From Candidatus Helarchaeota archaeon (GTDB lineage Archaea > Asgardarchaeota > Lokiarchaeia > Helarchaeales > RDOG01): a DNA stretch of 43,381 nucleotides. The notes under the pieces were generated by a model. That model did no database searches. It saw only the letters and a list, made by a program, of their open reading frames with translations, and had not been told where the DNA came from. Of this stretch, positions 6,156 through 10,017 are shown one piece after another. The stretch lies in assembly GCA_029838215.1 (NCBI GenBank), contig JALGVI010000016.1:1-43381 (forward strand). Reading direction: 5' to 3'. How positions within the stretch are numbered: the first letter of the stretch is position 1; the number at the start of each line of letters is the position of its first letter. The translations under genes and the position numbers were made by a program.

Positions 6156-7349
6156 TCAAATAATTCCTTTTCGTGTTAATTCCTTGATTTTTTCGTCAGA
6201 ATAGTCCAAAAAACGACCATATATTTCAATATTATGTTCTCCCAATTTAGGCGCCTTTCGTTCCACCTTTCCCCCAGCTTCTGAAAAACGAAGGATGACA
6301 TTGGGAATGGTTGCCTTTTCAACGCCATCATCAGAAAAATCGAAGTGCGTTAATAACGTTCCACGAGCACTTAATTGAGGATGATCCCGCACTTCGTCAA
6401 CGCTTAGCACGGGAGAACAAGGGATGCGTTCTCCAGTTAATATCCCGATAATTTCATCTCGGGTTAGCGAGCTCGTCCATTCCGTTAGTATCTCATCCAA
6501 CTCTTCTATATGGTTCATCCGCTTGTGAGCATTCTTGAACCGTCTATCCCGAACTAATTCTTGACGTCGAATTATGACCATCATTTTCTTAAACTGCTTC
6601 TCAGTGACACATACGATCGCGACACGTTTTCCATCTTTCGTGGGATATTGATTATATGTCGGGAGCCACGTCAAACCACCTTTCTTGCGATTTTTTGCGA
6701 AATCCATGAACTCGCGTGCGTGGGCCCTAATATTCAGGTTGTACATCATGTCCTGCATCGATAAATCAATAAATACGCCCTTACCGGTTTTTTCGCGATA
6801 ATAGAGAGCTTGCGAAACTCCGAGTGCAATGAAATGACCAGCTGTAAGGTCGGCATACGGAATATGCGGAGCACCCTTTATTTCATTTGCATCTAACATT
6901 CCAGAGGATGCTTGTGCTATTACATCGAATGCTGGTTGTGAGCAATACTCCTCCAATCCAGTCTGTCCAAATCCAGATATGGCACCATATATCAGCTGGG
7001 GATTTAACGGTTTCAAGACGGTCTCATAATCAAGCCCCCATTTCTTCATCACTCCAGGTGTAAAATTTTCAAGTACGATATCAACGTGTTTCACCAGTTC
7101 TTTGAAAATTTCCTGACCTTCTTTATATCGCAAGTTCAACGTGATGGATTTCTTATTTCGATTGATTATGGAAAACAATGGGCTGATTTGCTTGTTAAAT
7201 AACACGAATAATCGTAACGGTTCCCCAACTCCAGGGGGTTCTATTTTTATGACTTCAGCGCCTTGATCACTTAATTGAGTTGATCCCCAGGGACCCGAAA
7301 AAAACTGCGACAAGTCGAGAACGATCAAGCCTTCAAGTATTCTGTCCAT
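6156..7349 (-). CDS. Family III CoA-transferase (CaiB/BaiF)
   Basis: Contains VLDLSQFFSGP, GAEVIKIEPPG, NRNKKSITLNL, ENFTPG, ISGFGQTG, a catalytic-Asp region AFDVIAQA, and APKLGEHN. Confidence 0.95.
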   Translation of the reverse strand: MDRILEGLIVLDLSQFFSGPWGSTQLSDQGAEVIKIEPPGVGEPLRLFVLFNKQISPLFSIINRNKKSITLNLRYKEGQEIFKELVKHVDIVLENFTPGVMKKWGLDYETVLKPLNPQLIYGAISGFGQTGLEEYCSQPAFDVIAQASSGMLDANEIKGAPHIPYADLTAGHFIALGVSQALYYREKTGKGVFIDLSMQDMMYNLNIRAHAREFMDFAKNRKKGGLTWLPTYNQYPTKDGKRVAIVCVTEKQFKKMMVIIRRQELVRDRRFKNAHKRMNHIEELDEILTEWTSSLTRDEIIGILTGERIPCSPVLSVDEVRDHPQLSARGTLLTHFDFSDDGVEKATIPNVILRFSEAGGKVERKAPKLGEHNIEIYGRFLDYSDEKIKELTRKGII

Positions 7350-7438
7350 TGTTGATCACGGATAATCTTTTTTCGATAAAACAATTGAGAAATTCATCTT
7401 TTTCATTTGGTAGAGAATTTATAATTGAAAAAGTTCTA

Positions 7439-8758
7439 ATGTTTTTATTCAAAAACTTTATCAACCGGAATTGGAGACCTGATACTTTGGAATTTGAAAG
7501 AATACACGTAGAACACGTTGCCTTATTCGATAAGTTAATACAACTTTTTGCAGGGGGAAGACAGATCAAGAGATTTAATCCCGATGGGACTCGAGAATCA
7601 TTTATTTGGCCGTATTCATTTCCATTTATTGTTCGCCTCACAAAATGGCTAGATCGACACCAAATTCATCGGTATACAATGAAAAGGAAGGGTCCTTTAT
7701 TTTGGCTAGCGCGTGCTATGGGATTTCTTTTCGGCGGTTTGGCAATTTATTTTTCGGGTTGGACCGATCCCGTCATTCATAATATTAAATTTATTTATAA
7801 AAATCGGTTAAAACGCTACGATGAAAAAACGCGGAAACAAATTTTTAAAAACATCATATATCGAAACTGTCGTTACATGGCTCGATTATTAATTGAAGAT
7901 CTTTTGGTCTTTCCATCTTACGTTCACTATAAAAACTTGAAAGATAGAGATGGAATGAATCTCGAAAAATATAGACGTAAGTACGAACAATATTACGAAC
8001 TCAAGGGCAAGGAAAATTTGGATGCTGCCTTTGAAAAGTATGGAGGTGCAATACTTCTATACCTGCACACGAATTCGTTCATTCTCGGATCTTGCTATTT
8101 TGGTTTTCACGGTTATAATTGCATCATTCCAATTGATAGTCATGGAGTGAAGGCAATATCACGTTACATGAAGGGAAGCGGTCAGCATGTCATAGACGCT
8201 CATGACCCAAAAATCAAGAAGAAAATTGATAGATACTTGAAAAATAAAAAGAATCCCGTCTTCATATCAACAGCAGATATGGGGTATCCGAACCAAACAC
8301 TTCTTCCATTCTTTTCAGAACTATGTCGGACGCCTGTAGGACCAGCAGTCTTGGCGCAAAGATATAATCTTCCAGTCCTGCCAATGTGGGAAGAAACACA
8401 TCCAAAAAAATTCTACCACACGCTAAACATTGGAAAGGAAATCGATTTCATCAGGGATGAAAGTGTACCAAAAAGAGACAGGATATGCAAGAATTCAATT
8501 AAATGTAATAAAGAGATAGAAAAGATCATACTCAAAGACCCGGCAAAATGGTGCCTTCTTTCACAGGTTCATAATATACGGCGTTTTAATCCCGTGTTTG
8601 AAATTCAAGGATTAGGCGTCAATAAAATGCTCTTAAAACAGCTCGAATCATTTAAAATAACCATAAAAGAAAGTTACGAAGAAAATCGACAAGATGACAG
8701 GATAATAAAAGCCCTCGAGCGGTCTATTGAAAGTTTAAAGGCCTTAGAAAAATCCTGA
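7439..8758 (+). CDS. LpxL/HtrB-type lysophospholipid acyltransferase superfamily protein
   Basis: Contains GAILLYLH, ISTADMG, LPFFSELCRTPVGPAVLAQRYNLPVLP and IEKIILKDPAKWC. Start moved from the track's 7280, which overlaps the divergent gene, to the ATG at 7439. Confidence 0.7.
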   Translation: MFLFKNFINRNWRPDTLEFERIHVEHVALFDKLIQLFAGGRQIKRFNPDGTRESFIWPYSFPFIVRLTKWLDRHQIHRYTMKRKGPLFWLARAMGFLFGGLAIYFSGWTDPVIHNIKFIYKNRLKRYDEKTRKQIFKNIIYRNCRYMARLLIEDLLVFPSYVHYKNLKDRDGMNLEKYRRKYEQYYELKGKENLDAAFEKYGGAILLYLHTNSFILGSCYFGFHGYNCIIPIDSHGVKAISRYMKGSGQHVIDAHDPKIKKKIDRYLKNKKNPVFISTADMGYPNQTLLPFFSELCRTPVGPAVLAQRYNLPVLPMWEETHPKKFYHTLNIGKEIDFIRDESVPKRDRICKNSIKCNKEIEKIILKDPAKWCLLSQVHNIRRFNPVFEIQGLGVNKMLLKQLESFKITIKESYEENRQDDRIIKALERSIESLKALEKS

Positions 8759-8898
8759 CTCTCTAAAAACAAGAAATTCAAGCAGATTTAACGGATTTTA
8801 AAAAATAGGTCATTAATAAATGAAAAGATTTCACGAGAAAGACGAACACTTAGAAGTTAGTCACAATAGAAAAGCAACTTGGATTACTCAAAACACGA

Positions 8899-8970
8899 TC
8901 ACTTACCTTTCTGCTTGCGTCTTTTACGCGCTATCTTCCTGTTTCTTTTCTTCTTCCATTTTTGTCTGAT
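8899..8970 (-). CDS. rpl41e: Ribosomal protein eL41/eS32-like peptide (23 aa) with an apparent ATC start
   Basis: The minus strand translates to (I/M)RQKWKKKRNRKIARKRRKQKGK*, collinear with eukaryotic eL41 [25 protein letters not shown]. GGAGG lies 9 nt upstream, with a TATA/BRE further upstream. An in-frame TGA two codons upstream excludes an upstream ATG. Confidence 0.75.
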   Translation of the reverse strand: MRQKWKKKRNRKIARKRRKQKGK

Positions 8971-8979
8971 GATTCACGT

Positions 8980-9035
8980 CCTCCTTGCAATCAGTACAAT
9001 ATTCTAAGTGAGTTAATCAGTATTTTAAATTTTCG
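8980..9035 (-). promoter_or_regulatory. Putative BRE-TATA promoter and Shine-Dalgarno site for the eL41-like gene
   Basis: On the minus strand: CGAAAA (9035-9030), then TTTAAAATA (9029-9021), then AAGGAGG (8986-8980). Confidence 0.6.
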
Positions 9036-9138: not shown

Positions 9139-10017
9139 TCATTTTAGATTATCCTTTTGAAAATTATGGCTATTTTGTTTTAAATATTGTTTTTGAAGTT
9201 CGGTTTCCTTGAAGTATCGCGCCCAATCGCTATATTCACCATGATATACAAAAACGTATAGGGCATTAAAAATGTAGAAAACGGCGAAGATAAGCCAAAC
9301 AGTCCAAAAATTTGGATTAATTAACGTTGTAATCGCGCAAATGATAATCATGTAAATGACACCTGTCAAACCACCGGTCAGATAGCACATTCTTCGACCC
9401 TTGAAACCAATTTGCAAGAATTGGGCATAATTTTCAACCCAGCACGGCTCAAGCTTGTGAATCCAGAAAAAAGGTTCCACGTTATAGATTTTCTTCAACA
9501 CGTAATAATGAACAAACACGCGAATGCCTGCCATTGTCGTTATGGCGCTGGCGGTCCAAAGACCCAATCCAAGAAGGTATGTTAAAAGAAAAGCGAAGAA
9601 ATTTTGTCCTAAAAGCCAAAAAAACACTTCTTCGAAGAAGTAAACATCGAGAAGGCGAATTAATTCATTGAAAGTGTAGAAAAATTGCAAGAAAAATACA
9701 TTTTCTACGAAATTAAATAACCAGAAAAAGTTTAGAAGCATTCCAGCAATCAATGCCAGTATTCCAAACAGGAATCCCACGTTTTTCGAATAAATGTTAA
9801 AGGTAATTAGTGAGGTGCGTCGGATTCGTCCCAGTGGTTCGGCGAGTTCTTTTGGCACGCGGTCATATTTCAGTTTTACATCACGCATTATCGTCCGAAC
9901 ACGTCTTCGCTCTTGATCGCTTAAATAGCCTTTATTTTCTAACTGAAGTATTTCCTTTAACAGTTCTTCATCCATGAAATTCATTCCATAACCATATCTG
10001 TCTACCGATACTTTCAC
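9139..10017 (-). CDS. Hypothetical multi-pass membrane protein coupled to the thiolase operon
   Basis: A soluble N-terminal segment is followed by several hydrophobic helices. The GTG start overlaps the thiolase TGA (GTGA). Confidence 0.7.
   Translation of the reverse strand: MKVSVDRYGYGMNFMDEELLKEILQLENKGYLSDQERRRVRTIMRDVKLKYDRVPKELAEPLGRIRRTSLITFNIYSKNVGFLFGILALIAGMLLNFFWLFNFVENVFFLQFFYTFNELIRLLDVYFFEEVFFWLLGQNFFAFLLTYLLGLGLWTASAITTMAGIRVFVHYYVLKKIYNVEPFFWIHKLEPCWVENYAQFLQIGFKGRRMCYLTGGLTGVIYMIIICAITTLINPNFWTVWLIFAVFYIFNALYVFVYHGEYSDWARYFKETELQKQYLKQNSHNFQKDNLK

Follow-up and report, generated by a model that had tools for sequence, protein, structure and literature searches.

A short eukaryote-type eL41 gene with a probable AUC start codon in a Helarchaeales genome

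We analyzed a stretch of 43,381 nucleotides (hereafter the window) from a metagenome-assembled genome (MAG) of Candidatus Helarchaeota archaeon, an Asgard archaeon of the class Lokiarchaeia (GenBank assembly GCA_029838215.1, contig JALGVI010000016.1). Its minus strand holds, at positions 8970..8899, a genuine single-copy gene for the ribosomal protein eL41/eS32 that was missed by gene callers, an assignment that we consider secure from the sequence comparisons below. The codon at the position of the initiator methionine is ATC, and it stands behind a perfect Shine-Dalgarno (SD) motif. Taken as a whole, the explanation that we favor, and hold to be probable, is an SD-led eL41 gene started at AUC. 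We infer the use of AUC, the insertion of methionine, and any regulatory consequence from sequence. A first-pass annotation, made from the letters of the window, had already placed a minus-strand frame of this kind in the 380-bp gap between two convergent genes, and all its coordinates were correct on re-reading. The features that define the gene and its proposed start are as follows.

8899..8970, minus strand: eL41/eS32 coding sequence, short form, 23 codons (ATC AGA CAA AAA TGG ... GGT AAG) with stop TGA at 8901-8899; from translation, hidden Markov model (HMM), and PDB matches
8968..8970, minus strand: proposed AUC start codon, ATC, at the ATG position of the orthologs (16 distinct orthologs aligned), 9 nt after GGAGG
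8971..8973, minus strand: a second in-frame ATC, an alternative start that would add one residue, 6 nt after GGAGG, at the edge of the spacing distribution of the genome
8974..8976, minus strand: in-frame TGA that closes the frame upstream, two codons before ATC 8970
8980..8986, minus strand: Shine-Dalgarno motif AAGGAGG, complementary to the 16S 3' end; ATC 8970 lies 9 nt and ATC 8973 lies 6 nt downstream of it

Identity and form of the eL41 gene

Translated from the second, downstream ATC, positions 8970..8899 of the minus strand read IRQKWKKKRNRKIARKRRKQKGK, the whole frame being I-IRQKWKKKRNRKIARKRRKQKGK*, and K or R accounts for 15 of the 23 codons. The signature M-R-x-K-W-[KR]-K-K-R with its invariant Trp is present from residue 1, except that the codon of position 1 is ATC and not ATG. 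Searches of the same phylum, with the peptide and then with profiles, returned 23 orthologs of 21-25 aa (MR[AEKN]KWKKKR...), each alone in an intergenic spacer and with neighbors that differ from genome to genome. The nearest relatives compared in this work stand at genus distance or more, and counts over related genomes are not independent. Across a 17-sequence alignment that includes the window, residues R2, K4, W5, K7, K8, R9, and R18 are invariant. An HMM built on the 23 Asgard orthologs, from which the window's sequence was excluded, was run on 141,709 six-frame stop-to-stop open reading frames (ORFs) of at least 15 codons and had the window's ORF as its sole match in the genome (27.6 bits, E 1.9e-5; the runner-up ORF reached 10.4 bits). 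A second copy of eL41 was found in the genome neither by regular expression nor by HMM. Codon differences among close Asgard orthologs were 263 synonymous to 44 nonsynonymous, the pairs not being independent.

Protein structures point to the same family. A four-sequence profile that included the window's peptide gave 20 matches in the PDB at E up to 1, all of them eL41, eS32, or 60S L41; most are chains of 22-25 residues whose residue 1 is aligned with residue 1 of the profile, and short N-terminal extensions occur in a few. The window's peptide alone (phmmer against the PDB) matched eL41 chains only, again in register 1-1, so that the earlier claim of an alignment starting exactly at the Met position holds for the PDB matches as it does for the 16 distinct orthologs. 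The Pfam model PF05162, which has 25 positions and is low-complexity and noisy, gave the window's peptide 14.2 bits (E 0.043), its cut-off being 22.3. It had matches in 8 of 14 control genomes, none passing the cut-off, and gave no match over the whole genome at E up to 10, being too weak for such use. The window's own peptide (RQKWKKKRNRKIA, in any codons) had 0 matches in a metagenome scan, and the spacer DNA searched against 40 relatives gave AT-rich chance matches only. Rfam and tRNA scans of the window returned no match, and the spacer thus corresponds to no known RNA gene.

The taxonomic distribution of the short form within Asgard is patchy. Of 400 genomes searched with the 17-sequence profile, 45 had a match, and these 45 belong to about 10 of 33 families. 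The profile had no match in the 135 genomes of one family (f4) nor in the 14 of another (f5) of the same class, a set that includes three single-contig genomes. The gene has either been lost there or diverged too far for the profile to find it. According to a 2023 review (Table 1 of PMC9932298), eL41 is missing from Loki-, Odin-, Thor-, and Heimdallarchaeota, as it is from every TACK phylum. In the literature that we searched, we found no published report of an Asgard eL41 and no Asgard ribosome structure with an assigned eL41.

As judged from its frame, the window's eL41 is a short, 23-residue, eukaryote-type form without the archaeal N-terminal extension. An extension of the Pyrococcus type is excluded because of the in-frame TGA two codons upstream, and the region between this TGA (8976-8974) and the preceding TAG (TAG-NIVLIARRT-TGA) has no ATG, GTG, or TTG in frame. 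The first-pass annotation had described this arrangement, with ATC at the Met position and no ATG or GTG upstream, and had proposed a short eukaryotic N-terminus and a gene overlooked by gene callers; the first point was confirmed and the other two are supported. M-R-x-K-W is likewise where the fetched Asgard orthologs begin, which makes them short forms too. Eukaryotic eL41/eS32 (RPL41; PF05162; PDB 4v3p chain Lq, 3j6x chain 81, 6qzp chain Ln) is likewise a single basic helix of 21-25 aa, with the same M-R-x-K-W-[KR]-K-K-R N-terminus, Trp at position 5, and end-to-end alignment from residue 1, and we count the 25-residue Asgard ortholog L053 among these likenesses. The eukaryotic genes differ in starting at ATG, whereas the window's gene has ATC, is SD-led, and falls below the Pfam cut-off; residues 10-14 are N-R-K-I-A in the window and M-R-R-L-K in eukaryotes.

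The binding site of eL41 in the small subunit is bridge eB14. The long-form eL41 of Pyrococcus abyssi (37 aa, seen in the 30S subunit; PMC7005279) belongs to the same protein family, and the window's protein would be expected at the same ribosomal site, which in P. abyssi lies between h27, h44, and h45, beside the P site (PMC7005279). Unlike the window's protein, the Pyrococcus one has a 14-residue N-terminal extension that reaches the modified bases of the P site (PMC7005279), for which the window's gene has no room.

The start codon and probable near-cognate starts elsewhere

The genome has an SD usage against which the proposed start can be read. Upstream of 2,215 well-defined starts, GGAGG shows a roughly 8-fold enrichment at 6-11 nt that peaks at 7-10 nt, and the 3' end of the 16S rRNA on contig C124 (...GGAUCACCUCCU, also given as ..CACCUCCU) is complementary to AAGGAGG. 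In the window, the distances after GGAGG are 9 nt to ATC 8970, 6 nt to ATC 8973, and 2 nt to an out-of-frame GTG. By chance, GGAGG would end 6-11 nt before a given site in 0.3% of cases and AAGGAGG in 0.03% (~3e-4). On the mRNA, this perfect SD would place the AUC at 8970-8968 in the P site, at which initiator tRNA would read it as Met and give the product (M)RQKWKKKRNRKIARKRRKQKGK. Such an insertion of Met at AUC would be expected from the established near-cognate initiation of bacteria and eukaryotes.

Translation might instead begin elsewhere. One option is ATC 8973-8971, which would yield a product of 24 residues; the other is GTG 8977, from which a +1 shift would lead into the frame of eL41. 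The former codon is in frame and 6 nt after GGAGG, a spacing observed in 6 of 86 genes; the latter is the only canonical start codon nearby and is followed by an A5 run. However, the first codon of the orthologs coincides with ATC 8970, whose 9 nt fall within the 7-10 nt peak. A GTG 2 nt after GGAGG is at background level, and the orthologs neither have a GTG of this kind nor require a frameshift. We regard a start at either of these codons as quite unlikely.

Conservation in relatives, which the first-pass annotation had named as a check on the gene, was borne out by the orthologs, but their start codons are not those of the window. Among 29 fetched Asgard orthologs, the start position is ATG in 26, TTG in 3 (all of one family), and ATH (ATC, ATA, or ATT) in none. 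The ATC of the window is therefore derived in its lineage. In the family with TTG starts (f16; loci L130, L131, and L132, REKWKKKRLRKRKRKERRRKG), sister genomes (L128, L129) have ATG, and the strength of the eL41 start codon therefore varies inside Asgard too.

The eL41 genes of the four nearest relatives (L031, L030, L028, L034) have no strong SD. By eye, these loci show AT-rich TATA-like stretches about 25-45 nt before their ATG. Their sequences suggest mRNAs that are leaderless or have a very short leader; if so, the change from ATG to ATC in the window's gene would have been accompanied by a switch to an SD-led leader.

These comparisons bear on another account of the ATC, namely that an ATG was recently lost and that the gene is silent or decaying, its frame being open only because it is short. 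The start codons of the orthologs (ATG or TTG, none ATH) fit this account, as do the several unusual substitutions in the peptide. Losses of eL41 do happen, given that it was not found in the 135 + 14 genomes of the two other Lokiarchaeia families, and yeast without eL41 grows normally (PMC9932298). However, a decaying gene would hardly be expected to carry a perfect 7-nt SD at optimal spacing (chance ~3e-4). The lack of a strong SD in the four nearest relatives makes this motif look newly selected, not decaying. Moreover, the frame and all the invariant residues (R2, K4, W5, K7, K8, R9, R18) are intact, and ATH starts seem to occur on essential-looking genes of the same genome (see below). 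Start-codon loss thus appears unlikely to us.

Several points weigh against AUC initiation and should be considered together. The ATC is unique to the window's genome among the 30 fetched Asgard eL41 genes, so that the start is unconserved within the phylum. For a ribosomal protein needed in stoichiometric amounts, a weak start codon is strange, and archaeal starts are described as AUG, GUG, and UUG, all other codons being discriminated against by aIF1 (PMC4705826, PMC6237735). Some residues of the peptide are unusual (Q3, N10, A14, G22), eL41 is dispensable in yeast (PMC9932298), and a dying gene is conceivable, as 23 codons stay open long by chance. Finally, the source genome is a MAG (94% complete, 6% contamination) in which no tRNA-Met was found by aragorn, with or without introns, or by anticodon-arm regular expressions. 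The missing tRNA-Met is probably due to introns or to sequence absent from the MAG. Overall, aragorn reported 18 tRNA genes in the genome without the intron option and 36 with it.

With these points taken into account, ATC 8970 is probably a working AUC start, neither an error nor the mark of a dead gene. The first-pass annotation had proposed an expressed gene with a near-cognate start: the non-AUG start position without a canonical alternative stands, and initiation at AUC is plausible in view of other ATH genes behind strong SDs. These were sought at strong six-base SD matches that lacked a canonical start with an ORF after it and had an ORF of at least 100 codons opening within ten codons. 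At spacings of 7-10, such sites had ATC 8 times, ATT 7 times, and ATA 4 times, that is 19 ATH against 4.7 expected (~4-fold; binomial p 9e-8), and other codons occurred at about their expected counts.

Individual genes illustrate this excess. An HdrB-like gene (C62:22078, +) has ATC directly after a TGA; its residues 3-288 match positions 2-289 of the 290 in the curated profile TIGR03288, and its first canonical start is codon 24. Among 11 HdrB-like homologs fetched from relatives, 9 start with ATG and 1 with TTG, 3-5 codons before a conserved GC motif, and the eleventh has no canonical start codon in the stretch read. MoaA (C117:109, +) has ATA, and its residues 2-290 match positions 2-306 of the 308 in NF001199; the radical-SAM CxxxCxxC motif precedes the first canonical start and would be removed by a start there. 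AcnX (C47:11850, +) has ATT, its residues 2-379 match positions 2-386 of the 400 in PF04412, and a 68%-identical ortholog in another family of the order (G005:C92, L087) has ATT at the same position, behind AGGTGA and with an in-frame TGA. Of the sequence observations, the ATT common to an independently assembled genome speaks most strongly for such codons being real and in use. Further probable cases of ATH starts are PadR (C106:12545, +, ATC) and NifS (C112:103728, -, ATA).

Other loci came up in this search. The gene of a secreted protein (C138:2468, -) has ATH at the Met position behind a strong SD, and its signal peptide would otherwise be cut. By eye, eL33/L35Ae (C87:28074, -) needs an ATC behind AGGTGA. 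A glycosyltransferase (C113), an FAD oxidase (C17), and a gene on C164 are candidates only and undecided. MazG (C75:3768) and CheD (C110:2524) were rejected as ATT starts, as the family profile puts the real start downstream in both. We also dropped the NTGAAT[ACT] arrangement, in which a canonical start overlaps the stop, as a sign of frameshifting, since three of the four bases before TGA give it by chance.

The same genes speak to the quality of the assembly. The ATC could be an assembly or base-call error, or a minority allele, with ATG as the true codon at 8970-8968: the source is a MAG, all other orthologs have a canonical start, and no read pieces cover the site. Indeed, in the Logan contigs of one hydrothermal vent DNA run, we found three short pieces on the surrounding 2-kb stretch and none over 8899-9035. 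Yet the same pattern of ATH at a conserved Met position recurs in several genes on other contigs, and one ATT start is common to an independently assembled genome of another family. Furthermore, an error rate that hit several starts would break many genes, whereas the long ORFs are intact. We therefore hold an error to be very improbable.

Taken together, SD-led AUH initiation appears to be a minor but regular trait that this genome has in common with related Helarchaeales. The ATC of the window is best seen as one instance of this lineage-wide or genome-wide habit, and not as a dedicated sensor, because ATH codons also seem to start metabolic genes (HdrB-like, MoaA, AcnX, PadR, NifS) and because Asgard eL41 genes otherwise have ATG or TTG.

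An independent precedent for eL41 itself comes from another archaeal phylum. A metagenome search with the pattern ATH-R-x-K-W-K-K-K-R, which demanded ATH, gave at least 80 loci (L134-L213), and the figures that follow are among the matches listed. There, 73 loci, which comprise 67 distinct coding sequences, are 25-codon ORFs reading IR[AK]KWKKKR[MV]R[RK]...R[YH]K, and their first codon is ATC in 39, ATA in 25, and ATT in 9. An in-frame stop lies upstream, with no canonical start, in 36 of the 73, and in 65 a four-base motif resembling an SD has its end 8-10 nt upstream of the ATH. Codon differences among these ORFs are 2520 synonymous to 466 nonsynonymous, and their matches in the PDB are eL41 chains only. 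The gene is unannotated and lies 25-30 nt behind a gene for 6-phospho-3-hexuloisomerase and ahead of archaellum/pilus ATPase genes; NCBI MAG records assign the neighboring hexuloisomerase to Candidatus Bathyarchaeia, a group in which the 2023 review reports eL41 as absent (Bathyarchaeota; PMC9932298).

A sample blind to the start codon, drawn through the hexuloisomerase gene (L254-L258), had eL41 in 5 of 6 loci, with ATA as the start in 5 of 5; these loci lie outside the reach of the ATH pattern because of K11. GTG-TAG occurs just upstream in 3 of the 5, where GTG is excluded as a start because the TAG follows in frame. Judging from these frames, at least one archaeal clade outside this phylum would have near-cognate eL41 starts as its norm. 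The Bathyarchaeia genes resemble that of the window in their short form (25 codons), in ATA, ATC, or ATT at the Met position, and in an SD-like GGAG or GGGG that ends 8-10 nt upstream. They differ in phylum, in having ATH as the rule, in the hexuloisomerase neighbor, and in the C-terminus (...RRARYK).

Surroundings of the gene

The 380-bp spacer that holds eL41 lies between the convergent genes 7280..8758 (+) and 9139..10017 (-). The latter, directly upstream of eL41 on the same strand, encodes a multi-pass membrane protein of 292 aa; its stop is 168 nt before ATC 8970, and co-transcription with eL41 is possible. Three further features were read in the spacer.

9021..9035, minus strand: B recognition element (BRE)/TATA-like element, CGAAAA (9035-9030) followed by TTTAAAATA (9029-9021), read by eye
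8870..8893, minus strand: two T4 runs (8893-8890 and 8873-8870), candidate oligo-T terminator just past the stop, read by eye
8924..8977, minus strand: overlapping GTG frame of 17 codons, MNHQTKMEEEKKQEDSA*, judged a non-gene

The end of the TATA-like element is 50 nt before ATC 8970. Both this element, at about 50 nt, and AAGGAGG, at 9 nt, had been pointed out in the first-pass annotation and were found in the sequence as described. The element might possibly be an own promoter with a leader of about 30 nt, although this assignment is a weak one: the spacer around it is AT-rich, and a promoter is neither backed nor rejected because TATA-to-start distances in the genome are too broad (20 to 120 nt). 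Archaea use oligo-T terminators, and by analogy the T4 runs are a possible one. The overlapping GTG frame had been raised as a competitor for the eL41 gene; as a real gene, it is contradicted by a GTG outside the SD window, by an acidic peptide, and by the lack of this frame in any orthologous locus.

aIF1 and start-codon fidelity

Another gene of the genome that lacks a canonical start at its conserved N-terminus is that of the initiation factor aIF1/SUI1 (C46:4706-5008, minus; L090/L091), where an N-terminal zinc knuckle (CPKC...CMC) is encoded upstream of the first ATG. The frame opens at TAA, and the order of codons is TAA, GTT, ATA, with ATA behind AAGGAG. Among 29 aIF1 loci, 28 of them from relatives (L092-L120), 21 lack any ATG, GTG, or TTG in the stretch that runs from the in-frame stop to the first Cys. 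In the largest Lokiarchaeia family, ATH AAA GAN GAN GAN ATT TGC is kept, with ATT in 14 of 15 loci and ATC in 1 of 15, and three Helarchaeales genomes start aIF1 with TTG. We found no paper on AUH starts of archaeal aIF1 in the literature searched. By analogy, this non-canonical start looks like an archaeal counterpart of the AUU start of infC.

These two genes suggest a possible regulatory link. eL41 is in contact with aIF2-gamma and with the rRNA network of the P site, and an influence of it on start selection has been proposed (PMC7005279, PMC7531240). aIF1 discriminates against non-canonical starts, its own gene here seems to begin at AUA, and the output of eL41 would be expected to depend on start-codon stringency. 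One could then imagine eL41 and aIF1 as an archaeal start-codon-stringency circuit, both located at or next to the P site and both encoded behind AUH (eL41 in this genome and throughout a Bathyarchaeia clade, aIF1 in most of the Lokiarchaeia searched), their synthesis rising when discrimination against near-cognate codons falls. We consider this circuit doubtful. The idea of a sensor keeps some support because Bathyarchaeia keep ATH on eL41, because aIF1 lacks a canonical start here and in the majority of Lokiarchaeia searched, and because eL41 touches the P-site network. As a special property of eL41, in the way that the first-pass annotation had proposed it, the fidelity sensor is not supported, with 26 of 29 orthologs at ATG, 3 at TTG, and ATH on unrelated genes.

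The known systems closest to such a circuit are bacterial infC (IF3), with its AUU start, and eukaryotic eIF1, with its poor-context start, both of them cases of autoregulation of fidelity factors (PMC5499595, PMC3326321; reference 55 of PMC6237735). The likeness is that a translation gene stands on a start that its own fidelity machinery disfavors, here AUC for eL41 and AUA for aIF1. The differences are that autoregulation is known in infC and eIF1, whereas genes alone are read here, that within Asgard the AUC of eL41 occurs in one lineage, and that ATH is also found on metabolic genes. At the window's eL41, we observe two features of the infC type, a non-canonical codon at a conserved N-terminus and a strong SD at the spacing of the organism, and the orthologs do not conserve the start. 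Conservation of ATH was seen only in the separate clade of Bathyarchaeia for eL41 and, within Helarchaeales, for AcnX. If the circuit were true, it would be an archaeal counterpart of the autoregulation of infC through AUU and of eIF1 through poor context, in which a ribosomal protein would serve as a second sensor or effector.

The consequences of these findings extend beyond a regulatory role. The presence of a short eukaryote-type eL41 in Bathyarchaeia, as well as in about 10 of the 33 Asgard families, gives the 25-residue eukaryotic form direct archaeal counterparts, and this form therefore need not derive from the 37-residue euryarchaeal one. Standard gene callers would truncate or miss genes that start with ATH. 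The occurrence of AUC, AUA, and AUU behind strong SDs on conserved genes, one of them common to two families, would widen the picture of archaeal initiation beyond AUG, GUG, and UUG, and near-cognate starts on eL41 and aIF1 would make the control of start-codon fidelity in Archaea directly testable.

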